Sequence record: NZ_CP082907.1
Source: a plasmid
Reading direction: 5' to 3' (one strand)
DNA: 8,411 nucleotides
Of the stretch, positions 1-8,411 are shown piece after piece (the stretch's first letter is position 1; every line of letters begins with the position of its first letter). The notes beneath the pieces are model-generated. The model was not told the DNA's origin. It saw only the letters and a program-made list of their open reading frames with translations, and ran no database searches. The position numbers were made by a program, and so were the translations under genes.

Positions 1-151
1 ACGAACTCCCCGTTTAGTCCGACTACCACGCCTGTTCAGGTAACTGTTCACTTGATTCCAACCCTGACAGACACGACAAAGCGCCACTGGCGGTAGCCAC
101 TGGTAACGGTTTACGGAGCGAAGTTTGTATAGCGGACTATACACAGAGTTC

Positions 152-181
152 TTGAAGTGTGAGCCCAACTACAGCTACACT
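152..181 (+). promoter_or_regulatory. RNA I promoter (-35 TTGAAG, -10 TACACT).
   Basis: TTGAAG at 152-157 and TACACT at 176-181, 18 bp apart; the same arrangement as pMB1 (gttcttgaagtgg...ggctacactagaag). Confidence 0.55.
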
Positions 182-187
182 GAAAGG

Positions 188-295
188 ACAGTTTTGGTTA
201 CTGCGCTCCGTTTAAGCCAGTTACCTTCGGAAGGAAGAGTTGGTAGCTCTAAATTCCGGCAAACGAACCACCGTTGGTAGCGGTGGTTTTTTTGT
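188..295 (+). ncRNA. RNAI: Antisense copy-number control RNA I (~108 nt).
   Basis: acagttttggttactgcgctccgtttaagccagttaccttcggaaggaagagttggtagctctaaattccggcaaacgaaccaccgttggtagcggtggttttttt parallels pMB1 RNA I. The terminator hairpin accaccgttggtagcggtgg is followed by T7 at 266-293. Confidence 0.8.
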
Positions 296-307
296 TTACA
301 GGATATG

Positions 308-336
308 AGATTACGCGCAGAGGAAAATTATCTCAA
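308..336 (-). promoter_or_regulatory. RNA II promoter.
   Basis: Minus-strand TTGAGA (336..331), a 17-bp spacer, then TAATCT (313..308). Confidence 0.7.
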
Positions 337-541
337 GAAGATCATTTTGGTAGAACTACCAAATTATTGATTTAGTGTGTAGTGGAGTTTTTGAGGTGCA
401 TCTATGGCTCCCATCTCCGTACACTTTCACACAAGTGCTGGGACTGAAAGAGTTGTCCGTAACGTTAAAAGTACTGCCGGTCATCAGCGTTACCACCCCA
501 TGTCAAAACTGATTTTTTAGATAAAGCCGCAACAAAATACA

Positions 542-569
542 TTTACATATTTAAATGCATAAATATAAT
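542..569 (+). promoter_or_regulatory. Near-consensus sigma70 promoter for the OYE/ArsR operon.
   Basis: TTTACA (542-547), a 16-bp spacer, then TATAAT (564-569). RBS-like aggat at 590-594, ATG at 602. The spacer contains ttaaatgcat. Confidence 0.6.
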
Positions 570-601
570 ATCCCTTTCTCTCATCTTTTAGGATATTCGT
601 T

Positions 602-1720
602 ATGAGTTCGCTTTTTAGTCCGTTAAATCTTGGCGGTTTCAAACTAAGAAACCGTATTGCTCTACCGCCGCTGACTCGCTGCCGCAGCAATCAGCCAGGC
701 AACATTCCTGGTGATCTGATGGTTGAATACTATAGGCAACGTGCCAGTGCGGGTTTTATGATCACTGAAGGTACACAGATTGAGCCTCGAGGTCAGGGAT
801 ATGCCTGGACACCAGGAATCCATAGCGAAGCACAGATCGCAGGTTGGAAAAAAGTGACTGATGCCGTCCATCAGGAAAATGGGACAATTTTTTGCCAACT
901 CTGGCACGTCGGCCGTGTATCACATAATGCCCTTCAACCAGGAATGGCTCCCCCGGTTGCACCTTCGGCAATTACCGCAACCGGGGTAAGAGTATTTATT
1001 GAAACGGGTCCTGGAGAAGGCATTCTGACAGCACCCAGCGAACCACGGGAGCTCTCAACCCAAGAAGTGAAAGATATTGTAGAGCTTTATCGTGTCGCAG
1101 CGGAGAATGCGAAAAAGGCTGGTTTTGACGGTGTAGAACTACATTCAGCCAACGGATATCTGATAAACCAGTTTATTTCTGAACATACTAACTTCCGTAA
1201 AGATGAATATGGTGGCTCACTCGATAACCGACTGCGTTTCCTACGCGAAATAACCGAAGCTGTTAGTTCAGTATTTGGTAGCCATCGAGTTGGAGTACGC
1301 TTTGCCCCCTTATTTTCGAGCACAGATGAAGATAGAGTTTATCTTGGTCTTGTTGAAAAAGACCCTCATGATACTTATATACGTGCAGCAAAAATTCTGA
1401 ACGATCTCGGAGTAGGTTATCTTTCAATCGCCGAAGCTGACTGGGATAATAGCCCAGAGATGCCTGAAAGTTTCCGTGTTGCCCTACGTAAAACGTTCCA
1501 ATCTCCGATTATGTATTCTGGTCTTTATACTCAGGAAAAAGCTGAACGTATTTTAGAAAAAGGCCTGGGTGATTTGTTCGGTTTTGGACGTTCATTTATT
1601 GCTAACCCAGACCTCCCTGAGAGGTTCAAAGCCGGTTATCCATTAAATAGTACTGACAGATCCTCTCTATATGGTGGTACTGAGAAAGGATATACTGATT
1701 ATCCTGTTTATTATCCCTAA
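602..1720 (+). CDS. nemA: Old Yellow Enzyme family NADH:flavin oxidoreductase (N-ethylmaleimide reductase-like alkene reductase), 372 aa.
   Basis: The translation aligns along its full length with E. coli NemA as recalled from memory (LFSPLNLGGFKLRNRIALPPLTRCRS, YYRQRASAGFMITEGTQI, HSANGYLINQF, GFGRSFIANPDLPERF, GYTDYP). Stop TAA at 1718-1720. Confidence 0.9.
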   Translation: MSSLFSPLNLGGFKLRNRIALPPLTRCRSNQPGNIPGDLMVEYYRQRASAGFMITEGTQIEPRGQGYAWTPGIHSEAQIAGWKKVTDAVHQENGTIFCQLWHVGRVSHNALQPGMAPPVAPSAITATGVRVFIETGPGEGILTAPSEPRELSTQEVKDIVELYRVAAENAKKAGFDGVELHSANGYLINQFISEHTNFRKDEYGGSLDNRLRFLREITEAVSSVFGSHRVGVRFAPLFSSTDEDRVYLGLVEKDPHDTYIRAAKILNDLGVGYLSIAEADWDNSPEMPESFRVALRKTFQSPIMYSGLYTQEKAERILEKGLGDLFGFGRSFIANPDLPERFKAGYPLNSTDRSSLYGGTEKGYTDYPVYYP

Positions 1721-1734
1721 TTTTGTGAGGCAGC

Positions 1735-2049
1735 ATGTCACCGGAAAATGCCATTAAGTTACTAGGTAACCCTACTCGGGTTTCTATCCTAAAATGGCTG
1801 AAAAATCCAGAAGAGGAATTTGCTGATTATTCTCAGCTTTTTCCTTTCGAAAAATATGGTGTCTGTGCCAGTCTCATTCAGGACAAGGCGGGTTTATCAC
1901 AACCCGCAACCTCGCTATGCCTAAAAAGTTTGCATGATGCTGGACTACTTGAAGCGATAAAGGTGGGTAAATGGACTTATTACCGCCGCAGCGAATTTCG
2001 CATAAAAAAGATGACAGATGCTGTCATTATATCTCTACAGCAGTTATAA
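1735..2049 (+). CDS. ArsR/SmtB-family winged-helix transcriptional regulator (104 aa), probably co-transcribed with the OYE gene.
   Basis: LGNPTRVSILKWL...GLSQPATSLCLKSLHDAGLL fits the ArsR-family HTH. Only a partial CVC metal motif (GVCAS). RBS gagg at 1727-1730, 14 bp from the nemA stop. The terminator follows. Confidence 0.8.
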   Translation: MSPENAIKLLGNPTRVSILKWLKNPEEEFADYSQLFPFEKYGVCASLIQDKAGLSQPATSLCLKSLHDAGLLEAIKVGKWTYYRRSEFRIKKMTDAVIISLQQL

Positions 2050-2078
2050 AACGGAAAGAAGATGCTACAAATATTCAT

Positions 2079-2097
2079 ATTTACCATAACATCCCTG
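2079..2097 (+). other. Xer-like half site A: XerD-arm-like ATTTACCATAA plus CATCCCTG; no convincing XerC arm.
   Basis: atttaccataacatccctg is identical (18/19) to the XerD arm plus central region of the cer-like site at 4710. Confidence 0.45.
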
Positions 2098-2141
2098 TTG
2101 TGATCTGACCTGTTATGGGTGCACCGCCACACAGAACATCT

Positions 2142-2173
2142 AAAAAAAATCCCGCTATCGCGGGCTTTTTTTT
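2142..2173. terminator. Bidirectional rho-independent terminator.
   Basis: aaaaaaaat-cccgc-tatc-gcggg-cttttttttt: a 5-bp GC stem with an A-run on one side and a T-run on the other. It ends the ArsR-like gene on the plus strand and the 146-aa gene on the minus strand. Confidence 0.8.
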
Positions 2174-2612
2174 AGATGTTTACGGCTTTTTTGCAGTTTT
2201 TAAAGGTAGTTGCATGCATTTTGCCATAGTAATCCTGTCGGTCATCGTCCCATGCCCATGAAATGAGATAAGCATCTGATGAGCCACTAACAGTCCTGAT
2301 TCGACGAGTCAGACCTGACCATACTCCTGTCAGATCAGCAACATCCACTTCGAGTTCAGATGCGAGATCTTCACACCAGAAACCGTTTGAGCTGTCACTG
2401 TTTTCAAGGATAGCCTTCAGTACAGAACGTGATTTACTGCTCAGGCCTCGAACAAGCTTTTCCGCTTGGAGCGATGATAAATCGGTAGGGCCTTCACCGT
2501 TTTCTTCAAAAACATCCTCATCCACGCCCTCAGCAATAAGGGCTAGAACTTCGCTGCGTGCGCCAGCTGAAAGCTTTTGCAAATCGATCAATGACAAAAA
2601 AATTCCACTCAT
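2172..2612 (-). CDS. Acidic hypothetical protein, 146 aa. Start chosen at the second Met, which has the RBS GAGGAG; the ORF could extend to 2651.
   Basis: Minus strand reads aacGAGGAGaagtcagacATGagtggaatt. The ORF is intact, D/E rich (ENGEGPTDL, WAWDDDRQDYYG), and abuts the terminator. No family recognised. Confidence 0.65.
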   Translation of the reverse strand: MSGIFLSLIDLQKLSAGARSEVLALIAEGVDEDVFEENGEGPTDLSSLQAEKLVRGLSSKSRSVLKAILENSDSSNGFWCEDLASELEVDVADLTGVWSGLTRRIRTVSGSSDAYLISWAWDDDRQDYYGKMHATTFKNCKKAVNI

Positions 2613-2781
2613 GTCTGACTTCTCCTCGTTGATTTGAAGAAAGACTAACACAGACTAAGCGTTTGACGATACTTAAATGCATTAAACGATAAGGCAAACA
2701 TCTACTAAGCAAGGCTTATCTCAAATTATGCATTTTTGCTTTGATAATTTCTCTTAAGGTGAACATAAAACCCATCCCTGA

Positions 2782-2809
2782 TTTGAGGTTGATTTACCAT
2801 AACATCTCT
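2782..2809 (+). other. Xer-like site B: XerD arm ATTTACCATAA, central CATCTC, putative XerC arm tgtagcgcatc.
   Basis: The reverse complement reads GATGCGCTACA-GAGATG-TTATGGTAAAT. The XerC arm matches the dif XerC arm GGTGCGCATAA at 7 of 11. Confidence 0.45.
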
Positions 2810-2914
2810 GTAGCGCATCAAACCGAACCCTGACATATCAGAACACGCCGTTCTTTTAAAAGGATTTTTATGGTAATACTGGATAACCATCCATTTTACT
2901 GACCCGAAGCTGTG

Positions 2915-3091
2915 ATGACACCTGACAAACCCGACAGGGAGCTCCCTCTCCTTGCTACAGAAGAATGGCTTACACCGAACCACAGTACGCAGCAGGATAA
3001 AAACAGCGACTGGATTTCATCTCTGGAGAGAGAACTGGAGGAAATCTCACAAAAATGGCCCTTCCCGCGTAGTTTTACATGACGTTGCTTT
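2915..3091 (+). CDS. Possible small ORF (58 aa, MTPDKPDRELPLLATEEWLT...); weak RBS.
   Basis: An open frame with protein-like composition sits in otherwise non-coding spacer. It falls under the ORF-track length cutoff. Speculative. Confidence 0.2.
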
Positions 3092-3284
3092 TTCACATGC
3101 TCGCGTAACCCAGGCTCAGACTGTGGCAGCCGCATAAAAAAGCCCGTATGCATGAGGCTTCCACCACAACTTCGTCAGTTGGCGTCAAAAAAACCCTTCC
3201 TTTGCAGCGTTAAACGTTGCACTACCGGCAGCGCCTATTATAACTACAGTTCATTAACACGCATTAATTTAAAAGGACAGGATA

Positions 3285-3464
3285 ATGTATCAGCTATTTT
3301 TTCGCTGCCCTGAATGCGGGAACCTAAAGTTTATATACACTACCCGGAACGAAAAGCGGGAGACTCCTCACGGTGCTGTATGCAGCCGGTGCGGCACGCG
3401 CCTTACGGTTGCCTCCTGTCTGTTATCCGGAAAGCCCCCTCCTCCAAGCCAGACCCGTGACTGA
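3285..3464 (+). CDS. Small zinc-ribbon protein, 59 aa (C-x2-C ... C-x2-C).
   Basis: aaaaggacaggataATG gives a good RBS. MYQLFFRCPECGNLKF...GAVCSRCGTRLTV has four Cys in a CPxCG-type ribbon pattern. A possible TTGCAC-16-TATAAC promoter lies at 3217-3250. Confidence 0.5.
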   Translation: MYQLFFRCPECGNLKFIYTTRNEKRETPHGAVCSRCGTRLTVASCLLSGKPPPPSQTRD

Positions 3465-3656
3465 CTAACGGCTCGCAGGTTTATACGGGCGTGCTATAAA
3501 AGGTGGTACATCAGCTGTTATGGCTGGAGATCCGGGTTCAACTCCAGTAGCCCGTTCCATTTCCTTCTACGTCACGTCAAAAGCGTTTCCCAGGTACAGG
3601 TCTCACCTCAGGAATAACCAGCTTCATTTAAAATAAAAGTGCTTTTGCGCAGGCCA

Positions 3657-3678
3657 TTAAAAAGCCCGCAATGCGGGC
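3657..3678 (-). terminator. Rho-independent terminator for the yciG-like gene; may also act weakly on the plus strand.
   Basis: gcccgcaatgcgggc hairpin, followed on the minus strand by TTTTT. Confidence 0.6.
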
Positions 3679-3693
3679 TTTCTTCATAGCGGT

Positions 3694-3879
3694 TCAGGAT
3701 ACCGATTTTCTAGAAGGCCCTCTCCGGCTGATTTGGCCTCCTTTTCTCCCTGCTTCCTTTGCACGCTCCGGGTTGTTCTTGAAGTTACCTCCGCTTACGC
3801 GACCGCCTCGCTGTCCAACTTCTGCAGCCCGCTCCGGATTTTCGGCAAAATTGCTGGCACCACCACGACGTACTGACAT
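3694..3879 (-). CDS. yciG: YciG-like KGG-repeat general stress protein, 61 aa.
   Basis: MSVRRGGASNFAENPERAAEVGQRGGRVSGGNFKNNPERAKEAGRKGGQ is collinear with E. coli YciG as recalled from memory (GGSGNFAEDREKASDAGRKGGQHSGGNFKND...). RBS gggggt. Confidence 0.8.
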   Translation of the reverse strand: MSVRRGGASNFAENPERAAEVGQRGGRVSGGNFKNNPERAKEAGRKGGQISRRGPSRKSVS

Positions 3880-3961
3880 AAAACCCCCAGTTTGAGTTAA
3901 GTTCCATCATCCCAAAGCATAGGAGACATTATTCTACCGGTAGGTTTTTAACAGGGACTTG

Positions 3962-3987
3962 TGAAGCTGGCAAAAAAAACGGCGCCG
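3962..3987 (-). terminator. Strong minus-strand rho-independent terminator with no obvious upstream CDS; may end an sRNA.
   Basis: Minus strand reads acggcgc-tacg-gcgccgt followed by T8-9. Confidence 0.65.
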
Positions 3988-4093
3988 TAGCGCCGTGAGA
4001 ATCAGTTTTTAGTGTGCAGAATCCCCGGGTGAGGGCTACATGTTTATCGGCTTTGCACAGTGAACATTTATTAAAATACCTCCTCCCCGGATA

Positions 4094-4120
4094 CAAAAAA
4101 ACCCCGCCATCTTGCGCGGG
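4094..4120 (-). terminator. Minus-strand rho-independent terminator.
   Basis: Minus strand reads ccccgcgcaagatggcgggg followed by T7. Confidence 0.6.
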
Positions 4121-4435
4121 GTGAATAAAGAAGAATCCAAACGTACTCTCGGTAAACGGAACCAGCAGGAACCGTCACCTCTTAAGCCTGGTAAAGAACG
4201 ATCCGTTACTCAAGCGAAGCCAGGCACCCGCAGCCGGCGTTGTCGTACCGGATCCCCCCAGGCATATTTAACATAACAGTACTGTTAAGCATGCGGCTGT
4301 AGGCTAAGCGCTTATCTTAAAGATGCATCTGATAAATACCTTTTGTGCTCCTTCCCTGCCGGAGCGACAGTTTTAACGTATCCTGTAGGCTTCGCCTGCC
4401 GTACGGGTAGAGCTTTCACAGCAAGAAGGTCACGC

Positions 4436-4675
4436 ATGTACAGAAACGAAGACGAAAAGCTGTCTGACATAATAATGGGCGAAGCCGTCCTCGAGCTGCT
4501 AGATGAAATTGCGCCTGTCACAACCAGCTCGCTGCTACTCAAGTTGCAGGCTTTCCTGCTCAGGGAAGAAAACGCAAACAAAGAAAAAGCTATCCGTCAC
4601 GCCATTGACGAGGTGAAAGCGGCAACTGAGCGGTACAGCAGCGCCACCCTGGTAGATGCGGCGATAAGGCACTGA
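4436..4675 (+). CDS. Hypothetical helical protein, 79 aa. Start at the internal Met with RBS gaagg; the ORF could begin at 4343.
   Basis: gcaagaaggtcacgcATG. MYRNEDEKLSDIIMGEAVLELLDEIAPV...; the ORF ends 35 bp before the cer-like core. No family recognised. Confidence 0.45.
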   Translation: MYRNEDEKLSDIIMGEAVLELLDEIAPVTTSSLLLKLQAFLLREENANKEKAIRHAIDEVKAATERYSSATLVDAAIRH

Positions 4676-4709
4676 TGCAGTTTCCTGATCACCTTTGCCA
4701 GCCGCTCGG

Positions 4710-4737
4710 ATTTACCATAACATCCCTTGGGCGCACC
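4710..4737 (-). other. cer: cer/psi-like XerCD site-specific recombination core (plasmid multimer resolution site).
   Basis: The reverse complement reads GGTGCGCCCAA-GGGATG-TTATGGTAAAT, against ColE1 cer GGTGCGTACAA-TTAAGGGA-TTATGGTAAAT as recalled from memory. The XerD arm is identical and the XerC arm matches at 9 of 11. Confidence 0.7.
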
Positions 4738-4940
4738 CCTGCAGAGCCCCTCAGCGCGATTCTGCCGCGTCCGGGCCAGAATCCAGCCCTTTCCCTGCCC
4801 GGAACCGCGAAAATCCGCCCTGATAATTTCTGACCGGCTGCATGGCTATGCACGCAGGTGAATAGCGGGCGGTTTCACGCGTATGTTGTCACTAAGCCCC
4901 GTTTTCCGGCGCTTAACTCCTCTGATAACGGTGAACGGGC
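4738..4940 (-). other. Probable cer accessory sequences (PepA/ArgR side), including an ARG-box-like palindrome at 4838-4854.
   Basis: GC-rich non-coding sequence on the XerC side of the core. cTGCATggctATGCAcg resembles the ARG-box half sites TGAAT/ATTCA, ~110 bp from the core, roughly where the ARG box sits in cer as recalled from memory. Confidence 0.4.
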
Positions 4941-5055
4941 GCGCAGTTTACTGTGCGGCCGTGAGGCGTTGGCCAAGCCGCCAGGCGCGGCAGAAAACAG
5001 ATGGTGCCATTCGCTACCACTTTGCGAATCCTGCCCTCCGTCTGAATCGCAGAAA

Positions 5056-5075
5056 AATTTTGTACGTACGAAATT
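5056..5075. promoter_or_regulatory. 20-bp near-perfect palindrome AATTTTGTACGTACGAAATT (18 of 20), an AT-rich island in GC-rich spacer ~190 bp upstream of the 213-aa gene; candidate operator.
   Basis: Palindrome checked base by base against its reverse complement; two symmetric mismatches. Confidence 0.3.
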
Positions 5076-5264
5076 CAGGGTATTGGGCTGTGCCTGAGCG
5101 GCTGGCTTCTGGTACGCCAGCTCCTTACGCTGGCAGGGGACTGAATGACAAAATCAGATCCGTTTAAAACGATAATCCGGACGCTTTAAAGATAAGTTTT
5201 CGTTTACGAAAAGTGGCTCTGCCTGATATTTTTCAGACTGGTATAACAGACGGTAAGAGAATTA

Positions 5265-5906
5265 ATGGACGCAAAAACACTCGCCGTATCGGTTGCTGAT
5301 GGTATTGCTTCACTTCCGATGGATTTTTACCTGGGTATTGAACGAACCTTTCAGGATCTCAGCCTGTCAGATGGCGGCAGAAACATTCAGCGTCGTAACT
5401 TCGGTGATGATGAGAGGATGTACCGCGCTTTAAATAAGCTCTTCCGTAACAGAGCCATTCTGGGGCAGGTCGCGGAGATGATAATCAAAGACGCTTTATC
5501 ATATCTTCCGGATCCTGCCCTGAAAAAAATCACAGATAAACTCATCGGAGCAGCGACTTCACTGGGTTCAAGACAGTCAATGCAGCTGGCCATTACAGGT
5601 TATCTTGGCTCAAAAGTTGTTGGCGGAATGATGGCCAGCACAATAACGAAGTTATCACTGAGATTATGGACAGGCTCCCTTGTGGGCGGCATCGTTTTAC
5701 AGGGGGTGCTTTCGCGTGCTTCTGCAGCTTCCCGGCGTTTAAGGCATAAAAACCCCGAATTATGGTCAAAGCTTTATATCCTTGATTTTGATATGCTTTA
5801 CTTCCTCTTTGAAGAACCTTTAGCTAATTACATCGAGCTTGGTGAGACTCTTCGTAAAAACCCTTTGAAAACGGAGCAATTTCTGGGTGCAATCGAGAAT
5901 CTTTAG
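5265..5906 (+). CDS. Hypothetical 213-aa protein whose central segment is small-residue-rich, amphipathic and glycine-zipper-like; candidate membrane-active toxin or effector.
   Basis: A TGgTATAAC extended -10 at 5239-5247 and aagaga four nucleotides before the ATG. AITGYLGSKVVGGMMASTITKLSLRLWTGSLVGGIVLQG carries GxxxG-type repeats. Lower GC than the flanks. No family recognised. Confidence 0.6.
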   Translation: MDAKTLAVSVADGIASLPMDFYLGIERTFQDLSLSDGGRNIQRRNFGDDERMYRALNKLFRNRAILGQVAEMIIKDALSYLPDPALKKITDKLIGAATSLGSRQSMQLAITGYLGSKVVGGMMASTITKLSLRLWTGSLVGGIVLQGVLSRASAASRRLRHKNPELWSKLYILDFDMLYFLFEEPLANYIELGETLRKNPLKTEQFLGAIENL

Positions 5907-6096
5907 ACTAATCAGAAAAGTCGTTTCTGAGTTATCCGGGGCGGTGGTTATCAGCGCCGTAGTTATAGGAATTTTCATCGCAATTTTTGCGAATGAAGGG
6001 ATTATGCGCGTTATCGCTCCCGTTCTCGTCTTTATCGCAGGCCTGGTTCTTTACTGGTTAGCCTGGATGATTTCATCAAAAGAAGATCGGAAATAG
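5887..6096 (+). CDS. Small two-TM membrane protein, 69 aa, overlapping the end of the 213-aa gene by 20 nt (GTG start); candidate immunity or partner protein.
   Basis: ggag lies 9 nt before the GTG. Two hydrophobic helices (GAVVISAVVIGIFIAIFA; VIAPVLVFIAGLVLYWLAWMI) with basic termini. Confidence 0.5.
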   Translation: MQSRIFRLIRKVVSELSGAVVISAVVIGIFIAIFANEGIMRVIAPVLVFIAGLVLYWLAWMISSKEDRK

Positions 6097-6130
6097 GCAA
6101 CTCAAAAAAGCATTACTGTGGGCAACATTG

Positions 6131-6364
6131 TCACCGTATGGGCGTCAAAGGCTGCAGTGACAGTAATCCCTGTAAAGACAGGTCCTCATTCAGTTCACTC
6201 CAGTGAATGCCGCGCGGACTCAGCTCAAAACTTGCCAGCTGTTCAGCGCTGGCATTCTGCAGCGCAGGAAAGTACGTCAGAGGCACGCCCAGCACGCGAC
6301 CATCGCTCAGCTGCAGCCACATGTTGTAGGGATCAAATTTTGCCGATTTGATGGATACGCTCAT
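6131..6364 (-). CDS. DUF2442-family protein, 77 aa.
   Basis: MSVSIKSAKFDPYNMWLQLSDGRVLGVPLTYFPALQNASAEQLASFELSPRGIHWSELNEDLSLQGLL matches the DUF2442 pattern (DGR..PL..FP.L..A..EQ......G.GIHWP.LDEDLS..GLL). The minus strand reads ccGGAGGtcgtgATG. Confidence 0.75.
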   Translation of the reverse strand: MSVSIKSAKFDPYNMWLQLSDGRVLGVPLTYFPALQNASAEQLASFELSPRGIHWSELNEDLSLQGLLSLQPLTPIR

Positions 6365-6594
6365 CACGACCTCCGGTTGACCGTCACGAATTTACGTTGA
6401 TAGTATGCCCGGGTAGTCCTGTCGTCCATGACGACCACCAATGATCCCACGGCCTGAGAGGATCGCCTTCGGGTGGCTGTACAGAACACTCCCGCAGCCT
6501 GAAAGGGAGAACGCAAAGCGTGGTACATCTGCCCGCCCCTGGAAGCAGATATCGTCACAAACAGCGCACCTACGACGCGACGATGAGGGTACAT
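6364..6594 (-). CDS. Hypothetical ORF of 76 aa whose stop overlaps the DUF2442 start codon (TGATG); an alternative start at 6528 gives 54 aa after an AGGGG RBS. It does not look like DUF4160, the usual DUF2442 partner.
   Basis: The frame stays open up to a one-nucleotide stop/start overlap with the downstream gene. Basic and Arg-rich (TATRRRSSQAV...YYQRKFVTVNRRS). The sequence region is GC rich, so a chance ORF is possible. Confidence 0.35.
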   Translation of the reverse strand: MYPHRRVVGALFVTISASRGGQMYHALRSPFQAAGVFCTATRRRSSQAVGSLVVVMDDRTTRAYYQRKFVTVNRRS

Positions 6595-7160
6595 TTCACA
6601 ATGCAGTGACCGGCACCGACCGTCCTGTCATCCGCTGCCGGCAGTCATAACCACGACAGCCCGCTACACCCTGCGATCACCATTACGTCTTCCGGAAAGC
6701 ACCTGTTTGCAGAGGCAAACGCGCCTCCGGACTGAACGGCGTCACTTTGGTTCGAGTGAAACGAGAACAAAGTGACGCGTGAAAAAACCACGCTGCAGCC
6801 CCTGCGGTACAACGCCTGACAGCGATTTCCACAATCTGACGTGCACGTATTACGTGTTTTCATGCGCCCTGAACGGGCTTTTAACCACAACGCTGCCGGC
6901 GCGACCGCAGGCAGGTTTCATTAAGAAAGGAAAAAGAACGGCTCGGTATCGATGGCGACACCAGGAGACTGGTGTGTGGAGGGAGTCTGACGCAAGTCAG
7001 CCCGGCGTAAGCCGCGAACAGGTCAGCGACCTGGGGAAACCTCGCAAGAACTCAACAATTCGTCACCCCGATGCACAGATACCAGCCGGGACGCAGGAAG
7101 CGCAAAAGCAACCGCGCCGTCGGGGCCAGAATTACCGGAAAAGCAGGTGCTGTCAGCCGG

Positions 7161-7562
7161 CTATTTCCAGAACTGCCACCATTTGCCAGCAGGCAAAACG
7201 GGCAGTGCTGTCTCTTTTTTATGTTCGAGGAGATGCAGGGACTGCTTAAGGCTGTCGATATGCGACTCCTGAGCAGAAACCAGTGTACGGAGGTGTTCAA
7301 CTTCCTGTTTCAGGCTATGAACGAGTTGTTCATTAGCTGTATAAGACACTGTAACACGCTGTCCAGATACTTGTTCTTCTGGCTGTTCAACCGTAGTTGA
7401 AGAGATATCGCCGAAAACACGAATAAGCTCTGATATGTCTATCATTTTTGAGTTGCGTACACCTGCGCAGGTAGACAGTTCACCTGTTTTTATAAGCCTG
7501 TGCAGCGTTGTCCTGCTTTTACCTGTAAGCCTGGCGGCCTCACTGATAGATACTTTCGCCAT
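7161..7562 (-). CDS. HTH_17/excisionase-like DNA-binding protein with a C-terminal coiled coil, 133 aa.
   Basis: MAKVSISEAARLTGKSRTTLHRLIKTGEL fits the Xis/MerR-like HTH_17 pattern. EQLVHSLKQEVEHLRTLVSAQESHIDSLKQSLHLLEHKKE is a heptad-like helix. Starts 10 nt after the rop stop. Confidence 0.65.
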   Translation of the reverse strand: MAKVSISEAARLTGKSRTTLHRLIKTGELSTCAGVRNSKMIDISELIRVFGDISSTTVEQPEEQVSGQRVTVSYTANEQLVHSLKQEVEHLRTLVSAQESHIDSLKQSLHLLEHKKETALPVLPAGKWWQFWK

Positions 7563-7572
7563 GCGGATACCG

Positions 7573-7752
7573 TTATTCCTGATTTAACTTTGCCAGAAGG
7601 CAGGCATGAAGGCGCTCGGCATCCTCATGAAGCCGTTCGCACATGTCCGCTTCCGTATCCAGGTCCAGCTCGTTGAGCTTCTCCAGCAGAAGCAGGCTTT
7701 GCCCCTGAATGAATTTTGCCATGTTCAGCGCAGTTTTTTGCTGTTTCGTCAT
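7573..7752 (-). CDS. rop: Rop/Rom RNA I-RNA II kissing-complex modulator protein, 59 aa.
   Basis: MTKQQKTALNMAKFIQGQSLLLLEKLNELDLDTEADMCERLHEDAERLHACLLAKL against pMB1 Rop as recalled from memory, MTKQEKTALNMARFIRSQTLTLLEKLNELDADEQADICESLHDHADELYRSCLARF. DNA-level homology is also evident. RBS ggag. Confidence 0.9.
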   Translation of the reverse strand: MTKQQKTALNMAKFIQGQSLLLLEKLNELDLDTEADMCERLHEDAERLHACLLAKLNQE

Positions 7753-7882
7753 CAGACGCTCCGTTGCGTACGTACCATATGCTGAAAACAGGTGAAATGA
7801 CGCTTCCTCGGTTCCCCTGGCTGCGCCAGACGAACACTGCGGCGAGCGTTACCGGCTAACGACGAAAAGGCTTAGGCTTGCT

Positions 7883-8095
7883 CTAGGTAAACTCAGCAGC
7901 CTGACGTTCTTCAGCCCGTGCCTGTTTAGCGGCTTTCGCTTCACGTTGTCCCAGCAGCTGCTCACGGGCAACACGCAACACCTCTTTTTTTTCCGGCCCG
8001 GACAGCTTTTTGCCTTTTGCCCGTTCCGCTGCAAAGACAGCATCATCAAGGAACTGCTTTTCAGTCTTAGATACAACATGCAGGCGACCAGCCAT
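7883..8095 (-). CDS. Probable ribbon-helix-helix (CopG/Arc/ParD-like) small DNA-binding protein, 70 aa, immediately downstream of ori in the RNA II direction.
   Basis: The minus strand reads ctGGAGGatttATG. RLHVVSKTEKQFLDDAVFAAERAKGKKLSGPEKKEVLRVAREQLLG has a beta-alpha-alpha RHH-like pattern and a charged tail. No adjacent toxin ORF. Confidence 0.5.
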   Translation of the reverse strand: MAGRLHVVSKTEKQFLDDAVFAAERAKGKKLSGPEKKEVLRVAREQLLGQREAKAAKQARAEERQAAEFT

Positions 8096-8154
8096 AAATC
8101 CTCCAGGTCAATGTCAACAGCGCCCCCCTTTCCCCCCGAGCCTGGTCCCCGGAA

Positions 8155-8175
8155 CCCCGGTTTTCCATAGGCTCC
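8155..8175. other. ori: Replication origin (primer RNA/DNA transition region) of the ColE1-type replicon.
   Basis: ggttttccataggctccgcc corresponds to the pMB1 ori point ggcgtttttccataggctcc. Confidence 0.6.
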
Positions 8176-8411
8176 GCCCTCCTGACGAGCATCACAGAAA
8201 TCTGCCGATTCCCGGTGCTCAAATCAGAAGGGGCGAAACCCGACAGGACTTAAAGATACCGGACGTTTCCATCCGGTGGCTCCCTCGTGCGCTCTCCTGT
8301 TCCCACCTTACAGCTTAGCCCGTGTCTTTCCGCTGTTATGGCCGCGTTTTCTCATACCACGCCTGACACTGGGTGCTGCTTAGGTGGTTCGCTCCAAGCT
8401 GGACTATATGC
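8163..8411 (-). ncRNA. RNAII: RNA II 3' portion, ending at the RNA-DNA transition (ori).
   Basis: 8161-8411 aligns with pMB1 tttttccataggctccgcccccctgacgagc...gttcgctccaagctgg. The total length from ~300 to ~8163 around the circle is ~550 nt, matching the ~555-nt ColE1 primer. Confidence 0.7.

Follow-up and report, generated by a model that had tools for sequence, protein, structure and literature searches.

Xer sites are already established as points of exchange in ColE1-like plasmids: passages of PMC6764390, PMC8683028 and PMC10454011 describe a mosaicism in which variable DNA abuts an Xer site, the proposed crossover point, and an exchange that uses Xer sites together with the origin of transfer (oriT). 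A plasmid is expected to carry a single Xer recombination site (xrs), according to a passage of PMC11705084, and in the portion of PMC11724359 that deals with small enterobacterial plasmids, all xrs are associated with accessory sequences. Here we analyzed an 8411-bp stretch of plasmid DNA (sequence record NZ_CP082907.1; hereafter the window), which is a complete circular ColE1-type plasmid linearized inside its origin of replication (ori). It carries five Xer-like sites, named A, B, D, E and C from left to right. Sites A, B and C each begin with a copy of a 19-bp direct repeat, and these repeats are very probably halves of Xer sites that mark site-specific crossover junctions.

The closest class of known sites is that of ColE1 cer, mwr and psi, which site C resembles in its exact cer XerD arm, its good XerC arm and the accessory DNA on its XerC side. 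Like ColE1 cer, it also has an ARG-box-like palindrome about 100 bp away and an invariant orientation relative to ori. The center of site C is 6 bp long (within the 6-8 range) whereas that of cer is 8 bp, and unlike cer, site C is accompanied by four extra partial direct-repeat sites that lack accessory sequences. Examples of Xer/oriT exchange are said to include the qnrB19 plasmids (Tran et al. 2012), pECL18/pKPN2 (Zakharova et al. 2002) and the pCERC7/NTP16 group (Moran and Hall 2017). As in the qnrB19-type model, the variable DNA of this plasmid is bounded by an Xer site. That model, however, uses one Xer site plus oriT, whereas here there is no mob/oriT region, the second crossover of a recent exchange lies in ori, and arrays of up to four or five direct sites bound recurring single-gene units.

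The pdif modules of Acinetobacter Rep_3 plasmids are alike in that multiple 28-bp accessory-less sites delimit recurring modules. Blackwell and Hall (2017) reportedly described these modules as flanked by inversely oriented sites; here, in contrast, all 5 sites share one orientation, as do the sites within all 17 multi-site loci that we compared. The replicon is also of the ColE1 type, the hosts are others, and there is one full accessory-sequence site, of which pdif has none. With the integrative mobile elements exploiting Xer (IMEX), such as the CTX, VGJ and TLC phages at dif, the present system would share the use of host XerCD without an element-encoded recombinase, an inferred single XerC exchange that tolerates non-identical centers, and an integrated element flanked by direct hybrid sites. 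The target here, in contrast, is a plasmid cer-type site, and the units are 0.7-1.1 kb without phage functions. Integron arrays have in common with this plasmid a fixed primary site and compact one- or two-gene units in one orientation, each with its own recombination end. Integrons rely on an IntI integrase, attI and promoterless cassettes with attC; here, in contrast, there is no integrase and no attC hairpin, the units have their own promoters and terminators, and the recombinase would be host XerCD. What we judge to be new are the direct arrays of accessory-less partial sites that bound recurring cassettes beside a full cer-type site, a feature that may be partly described already in the Xer/oriT papers.

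The 19-bp repeats and the Xer-like sites

The 19-mer ATTTACCATAACATCYCTK has exactly three copies (2079-2097, 2792-2810 and 4710-4728), each on the + strand. Chance alone would give about 0.01 matches, and three copies appeared in 0/200 shuffles, so that a chance repeat was rejected, as it was by the site-score scan described below. A first-pass annotation of this DNA had listed the three copies in their common orientation but placed the middle one at 2782, a typographical error for 2792. When reverse-complemented, the first 11 bases of the repeat match the ColE1 cer XerD arm TTATGGTAAAT exactly. The copies share no identity leftward, and rightward identity stops after the 6-bp center, each copy being followed by a different XerC-side sequence as had been annotated. 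The annotation had further read the stop in identity as lying inside the central region; it does fall at the Xer site, but at the boundary between the center and the XerC arm.

We scanned the whole window for an XerD arm, a 6-8 bp spacer and an XerC arm (maximum score 22), taking the dif, cer and psi reference sequences from a table quoted in a passage of PMC2410131. The scan returned five sites, which share the + strand and a spacer of 6 bp. Site C (4710) scored 21, sites B (2792) and D (3626) 18 each, site E (4266) 17 and site A (2079) 16. In shuffled sequence, 0.49 sites reached a score of 16 or more and 0.05 a score of 17 or more. The three sites that had been proposed as boundaries are all real, but D and E had been missed.

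Site A (2079-2106, +; ATTTACCATAA CATCCC TGTTGTGATCT) and site B (2792-2819, +; ATTTACCATAA CATCTC TGTAGCGCATC) both have the exact cer XerD arm, followed by XerC arms that match at 5/11 and 7/11 positions, respectively. They keep the XerD arm and spacer, have weak XerC arms and lack the accessory region, much as the annotation had described them. In site D (3626-3653, +; ATTTAAAATAA AAGTGC TTTTGCGCAGG), the XerD arm is degenerate, with 10/11 matches to the dif arm; its XerC arm matches at 8/11 positions, and the inner TGCGCAAAA of that arm is near TGCGCATAA. Site E (4266-4293, +; ATTTAACATAA CAGTAC TGTTAAGCATG) is a candidate only, with an exact dif XerD arm and a poor XerC arm, and the per-site test across ColE1-like loci gave no homology breakpoint there. 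It sits in a window-specific stretch of about 450 bp (3902-4349) with two terminator-like hairpins. Sites A, B, D and E show no similarity to the accessory region of site C and have no ARG-box-like palindrome at the right distance; the only other palindrome, a weak one next to site B (TGGATAACCATCCA at 2880), does not rise above chance and is wrongly spaced. To function with XerCD, accessory-less sites such as A, B and D would be expected to depend on FtsK.

Site C (4710-4737, +; ATTTACCATAA CATCCC TTGGGCGCACC) is a 28-bp cer-type core with a 6-bp center, an XerD arm identical to that of cer and an XerC arm that matches the best of the dif, cer and psi arms at 10/11 positions. Its accessory sequences lie on the XerC side (4738-5097, +). 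When 250 bp on this side were aligned for 16 main sites from relatives, the region was conserved in all 16; overall, conservation extends over about 290-390 bp in at least 16 relatives. A near-invariant ARG-box-like palindrome, TGCATGGCTATGCA, is found at 4839-4852, 102 bp from the XerC arm. The region thereby conforms to the anatomy expected of cer-type sites, in which at least about 180 bp of accessory DNA on the XerC side include an ArgR (or ArcA) box some 100 bp from the core. RNAI is on the + strand, so RNAII runs leftward and reaches the accessory region (4738 onward) before the core (4737-4710). This orientation obeys the rule, given in a passage of PMC2831885, that in ColE1-like plasmids RNAII read-through meets the accessory region first. 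By its sequence anatomy, site C is the plasmid's complete cer-type multimer-resolution site, predicted to bind ArgR and to resolve dimers; the first-pass annotation had already called it a good cer/psi-like core with accessory sequence.

Site C is also a homology boundary in 12/33 compared loci. Backbone homology in the relatives starts at 4703-4711, a few bases from the outer edge of the XerD arm, and to the left of it at least 5 unrelated sequences occur. Between the window and the related locus L134 (compared loci are designated by L numbers), the 28-bp core is identical and identity is about 100% from about 5020 on, with about 75-80% across 4738-5020. In L134 and L138, the accessory region from 4738 to about 5010 is a diverged patch, which suggests that it was itself swapped and that the core formed one edge of the exchanged segment. 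At 4695-4723, a promoter-like match overlaps site C, but it was rejected as being at chance level.

An orphan XerC-arm-like decamer, TGGGTGCACC, is present at 2116-2125 (+) and matches TGGGCGCACC of site C at 9/10 positions; the two are the only such decamers in the window. The orphan begins 20 nt (TGTTGTGATCTGACCTGTTA) past the center of site A and is part of the cassette described below in every context. The stretch 2096-2125 looks like a former full site that may have been split by a short insertion or duplication.

Recurring units between Xer-like sites

The clearest unit is the acidic-protein cassette (2096-2808), which comprises the XerC side TGTTGTGATCT, a terminator, a gene, a promoter region and its own ATTTACCATAA CATCTC. 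Its gene (2172-2612, - strand) encodes a 146-aa acidic protein with an isoelectric point of 4.55, and a bidirectional intrinsic terminator acting on both strands (2151-2164) stands at the 3' end of the gene, beside the XerC side. The segment from 2079 to 2800 is a one-gene segment ending at this terminator, in agreement with the first-pass annotation. The cassette recurs at 90.6-99.3% DNA identity in seven contigs (L133, L134, L135, L136, L138, L139 and L140). There, the match begins at 2076-2080 and stops at 2808-2817, so that it covers the interval between sites A and B and does not go beyond it.

The left end of the cassette is invariant from |TGTTGTGATCT GACCTGTTATGGGTGCACC onward and is joined to seven different upstream flanks. 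The arm and center upstream of it vary, reading ATTTACCATAA CATCCC, CTTTACCATAA CATCCC, ATTTAACATAA GAGTTC, ATTTACCATAA GATCTC or ATTGAACATCA AATCCC. The right end is always the cassette's own ATTTACCATAA CATCTC (CATCCC in L134/L138), joined to at least 6 different XerC sides: TGTAGCGCATC in the window, GCCCATGCCCT in L133, L135 and L137, AGTAACGAAGA in L136, and a different full main site, accessory DNA included, in each of L134/L138, L139 and L140. In site B, accordingly, the XerD arm and center are those of the acidic cassette and the XerC side is that of the next unit.

More diverged copies of the same build are found in Cronobacter pA84-3 (L001) and E. coli pLR-71-1_7 (L002). In plasmids of E. 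coli, Shigella and Enterobacter, copies with 67% aa identity form a 699-bp unit flanked by two direct sites with a 7-bp center, CGTCTCA CTACACGAACC and CGTCGCA TTACGCGCACC, the latter with accessory DNA. At least 23 public contigs encode the identical 146-aa protein, in neighborhoods that differ widely and include genes for a DUF4225 protein, a PAS/MCP chemoreceptor, a methyltransferase and a STAND ATPase. The unit at 2079-2810 is present in unrelated surroundings with identity ending at both sites, the flanks differ in every context, and no case of the 19-mers lying inside longer conserved blocks was seen in the compared loci. From these comparisons, we strongly infer that 2079-2810 is an Xer-mobilized cassette, as the first-pass annotation had suggested.

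The acidic protein has no family match in Pfam, NCBIfam or PHROGs. Its structure model is confident over residues ~45-145 (mean predicted local distance difference test score, pLDDT, of 83), where a winged-helix domain is predicted; a fold search returned generic winged helices only. In E. cloacae pRHBSTW-00473_4 (L131), a Tn5403-family Tn3-like transposon (119-3773) directly follows ATTTACCATAA CGTCTCA CTA and so lies inside the XerC arm of the secondary Xer-like site that precedes the acidic-protein gene. Insertions of transposons in Xer loci have been reported.

Site A is itself a junction, both as the left cassette end in seven contexts and in comparison to a Pantoea eucrina contig, L020, and the near-identical L035, which lack the 2079-2810 unit. 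These contigs have 99.3% identity to window 1655-2100 and are 100% identical to it over ~110-430. Identity ends after the center of site A, where the window reads CATCCCT|GTTGTGATC and L020 reads CATCCCT|TTTGGGCAGG, and the sequences that follow are unrelated; the other end of the identical block fades gradually inside ori. The sharp end at site A and the gradual end in ori point to a recent exchange with one Xer-site end and one homologous end. The XerD arm and center of site A (2079-2095) travel with the ori-proximal cargo segment (602-2095). Over ~110-2097 the window is 97.6-100% identical to L020/L035, compared to only 85-91% over the rest of the backbone, and this excess suggests that the replication-control segment and the reductase-ArsR cargo were exchanged together.

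In L020, the order is arsR, a cassette, a zinc-ribbon unit, a KGG + 79-aa cassette, and then the accessory region and backbone, with a KGG cassette in the slot that the acidic cassette occupies in the window. The stretch 425-2723 of L020 holds two diverged, Xer-like-bounded KGG + 79-aa cassettes in one array, with ~74-82% identity to that of the window.

The DNA between sites B and C had been annotated as one segment bounded by 19-mers. The 19-mers are module boundaries, but 2811-4709 consists of at least two units split at 3626. The second unit (2809-3642) contains unique DNA and an open reading frame (ORF) for a zinc-ribbon small protein (3285-3464, +; a weak ECs_2282/Lar-like match, NCBIfam NF047912, E = 1.7e-8, below cutoff), and ends with the XerD arm and center of site D. 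Part of it (3241-3560) has counterparts of ~72% identity in L020, L035 and L105, and these are likewise flanked by Xer-like sites. The KGG + 79-aa cassette (3643-4726) begins with the XerC arm TTTTGCGCAGG, which is the one found in site D, and a terminator, and ends with the XerD arm and center of site C. It encodes a KGG-repeat stress protein (3694-3879, -; Pfam KGG, E = 1e-11) and a 79-aa ORF (4436-4675, +), and it contains the window-specific stretch 3902-4349.

Homologous KGG units bounded by Xer-like sites occur once in L003 and twice in L020. The positional homologs of site D lie at 2095 in L003 (TTTTACCATAA CATCCC TTTTGCGCAGG) and at 425 and 1885 in L020; across these, the XerC arm, terminator, KGG gene and 79-aa gene are conserved, and the XerD arm and center differ. 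Relatives that lack 2811-4709 are also known (L134/L138, L139, L140 and L002). In L134/L138, the acidic cassette directly adjoins a backbone 96% identical to window 4709-7232, so that their architecture looks like that of the window minus 2811-4709.

To address generality, we compared 34 non-redundant ColE1-like loci by per-site tests. A global test of breakpoint enrichment gave a 3-fold signal, weak because fragmented weak high-scoring segment pairs create spurious ends, and was replaced by the per-site tests and by direct reading of junctions. One record, L008 (Pantoea sp. CCBC3-3-1 plasmid unnamed1, 25.5 kb), consists of three tandem, slightly differing ColE1-like copies of ~8.5 kb, either a true multimer or an assembly artifact, and was left out of the statistics. 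Main sites were homology ends in 27/30 cases, with a mean of 5.5 partner loci each (p = 2e-14), and secondary sites in 15/33, compared to 24% for random 28-mers (p = 0.005). Among site pairs, 140 shared the same XerC side with unrelated upstream DNA, 18 showed the reverse and 7 were alike on both sides. All sites were on one strand in 17/17 loci with at least 2 exact-arm sites (29 orientation choices). Arrays of 4-5 sites also occur in L020, L105, L044 and L119, and the hosts of such ColE1 replicons include Pantoea, Erwinia, Cronobacter, Escherichia and others.

Proposed mechanism and alternative explanations

Across these comparisons, the junctions sit at the boundary between the center and the XerC arm, and partner sites need not share a center: the center stays with the XerD arm and the left-hand DNA, and the XerC arm with the right-hand DNA. 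We propose that site-specific crossovers at the plasmid's Xer site gave rise to A, B and D as junction sites, each crossover joining the XerD arm and center of the left DNA to the XerC side of the right DNA. The cargo would then be an array of self-contained units, each starting with its own, usually weak, XerC-arm-like end, often followed by a terminator, and ending with its own XerD arm and center. Such units would stack on the XerD side of the fixed backbone XerC arm and accessory sequence. Host XerC and XerD would most likely be the agent of cassette swapping.

The boundary between the center and the XerC arm would correspond to the XerC cleavage point. As all crossovers lie there and the centers differ, a single pair of XerC strand exchanges seems to be involved, after which the Holliday junction may be processed without XerD exchange, for example by replication. 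An XerC-only pathway is described for cer and for some Xer-exploiting phages in a passage of PMC7399989; since it needs no branch migration through the center, it fits the mixed centers. Units could be gained at the main site either as excised circles or by cointegrate formation at one site and resolution at another, which are formally equivalent, and each gain would leave the old XerD arm and center on the far side of the new unit, giving an ordered array. Because the secondary sites lack accessory sequences, they should not join a PepA/ArgR synapse with site C, which would account for the stability of the array. Fully competent second sites would delete the intervening DNA, which may explain why only weak sites persist.

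We regard it as plausible, if short of probable, that ColE1-type plasmids of the Erwiniaceae and Enterobacteriaceae carry an integron-like, recombinase-less cassette system that still operates, in which a single XerC-catalyzed exchange inserts, and now and then swaps, 0.7-1.1 kb units at the cer-type site. Such an exchange would tolerate non-identical centers and very weak XerC arms, with arrays growing on the XerD side. That the cassettes are active today is likewise a tentative proposal. Several observations weigh against the mechanism proposed above. The XerC arms of site A (5/11) and of several partners are very poor, including at usually conserved innermost positions, so that recognition by XerC is not obvious. 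Enterobacterial accessory-sequence sites are restricted to intramolecular recombination according to a passage of PMC11705084, which means that integration must be rare or use another mode. The same passage has xrs-flanked units of Acinetobacter shown to be non-excisable and to form cointegrates. A circle or tandem junction of the acidic cassette was not found in pattern scans of public metagenomes, where the cassette is rare and the result therefore uninformative. Finally, the association between center and XerD arm is inflated by locus collection: a Fisher test of XerD-arm type versus center type is confounded, many loci having been fetched with an ACC+CATCYC pattern, and we do not use it as primary evidence.

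Some of these points would equally fit inert scars, left by rare whole-plasmid cointegration at main cer sites followed by random deletions, with no discrete mobile cassettes. The missing circle junction (given the rarity of the cassette in the metagenomes) and the cointegrating, non-excising units of Acinetobacter agree with this explanation, as do the secondary sites, with their weak XerC arms and lack of accessory sequences, and the orphan XerC arm 20 nt past site A, which resembles a decayed main site. Random deletions, however, would not end at one recurring pair of points across seven contexts, and the joining of the same weak XerC sides (TGTTGTGATCT and TTTTGCGCAGG) to several partners argues for repeated use of that boundary. 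We therefore think scars unlikely. RecA-dependent or short-homology recombination, acting at the 17-19 bp common to cer-like sites in place of Xer catalysis, would make the repeats merely the sole shared sequence of otherwise unrelated plasmids. Where both partners carry ATTTACCATAACATCYC, as at site A versus L020, a crossover cannot be placed within the shared 17 bp, and the nemA-arsR block has a second crossover of a clearly homologous kind, with identity that decays gradually in ori. Against this stands the left junction of the acidic cassette, which falls at the same nucleotide with ATTTAACATAA GAGTTC, ATTGAACATCA AATCCC or ATTTACCATAA GATCTC upstream, arms and centers that share little with the cassette's ATTTACCATAA CATCTC. 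The KGG cassette shows the same fixed-junction pattern, all sites are in one orientation, and 17 bp is below the usual minimal processing length of RecA, which leaves homologous recombination a very improbable source of these junctions.

The tolerance of very weak XerC arms, and the high variability of XerC-side sequences at secondary sites, would be explained if a different site-specific factor acted with or instead of XerCD, either a host tyrosine recombinase or a plasmid helper such as the HTH_17 protein encoded at 7161-7562, which is conserved beside rop in this plasmid group. The XafT protein of TLC phage is reportedly an Xer-activation factor from a mobile element. The window encodes no recombinase, however, and L129 and similar loci carry the cassette between sites without the HTH_17 gene. 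Moreover, the half of the sites that is conserved matches an XerD arm exactly, and cer anatomy is canonical at the main sites. We consider such a factor highly unlikely. Site-specific crossover at Xer sites by host XerCD is thus the reading that we prefer.

Accessory and resistance genes are carried to a large extent on small multicopy ColE1-like plasmids, whose ways of acquiring cargo without transposases or integrases are only partly understood. Plasmids bounded into modules by multiple sites have so far been treated as a specialty of Acinetobacter. If the proposal is true, it would describe an active route of gene flow among small plasmids, one distinct from the Acinetobacter dif modules because its sites are direct, not inverted, and a full accessory-sequence site serves as the acceptor. 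It offers a testable system in E. coli-compatible replicons, with a defined cassette, junctions, and donor and acceptor sites, and opens the questions of whether XerCD is a general cassette integrase, what is minimally needed on the XerC side and how the topological filter of cer is bypassed.

Backbone and other cargo

RNAI of a ColE1-type replicon is found at 189-295 (+; Rfam RF00106, 61.7 bits). RNAII and ori run leftward across the window ends, which indicates that the window is the whole circular plasmid, and hundreds of ColE1-like plasmids have RNAII/ori regions that match 8157-8411 together with 1-345. The best plasmid in PLSDB covers at most 31% of the window. The backbone common to relatives consists of 4710-5097, 6179-8411 and 1-345, and the cargo is placed from the RNAII promoter to position 4709. 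The ori-proximal cargo segment (602-2095, +), which ends with the XerD arm and center of site A (2079-2095), encodes an alkene reductase of the old yellow enzyme (OYE) family (602-1720, +; Pfam PF00724, E = 6e-81) and an ArsR-like regulator (1735-2049, +; weak HTH_5 match).

On the - strand of the backbone, rop (7573-7752) adjoins the conserved gene for the 133-aa HTH_17 (excisionase/MerR-type) protein (7161-7562). Neither the ORF list nor the domain search revealed a recombinase gene in the window, nor does the window contain mob genes or nic-region sequence, the nic-like TAAGCCAGTATACACTCC being found only in other loci. Opposite-strand matches of the form ATTTACCATAT TAAGCCA GTATACACTCC correspond to the ColE1 nic/oriT region, not to Xer sites, and were excluded.

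Within the backbone, a 1.1-kb segment (5098-6178) whose ends (5097 and 6179) are without an Xer-like site is missing from most backbone relatives and present in L134. It contains a 213-aa ORF with a weak match to PHROG 26461 and an overlapping 69-aa membrane-like ORF. Two structured motifs match Rfam families at gathering level, STAXI (75 bits) at 6420-6569 (+) and EFASI (90 bits) at 6938-7088 (+), and both sit in the backbone interval from the DUF2442 gene to the HTH_17 gene.

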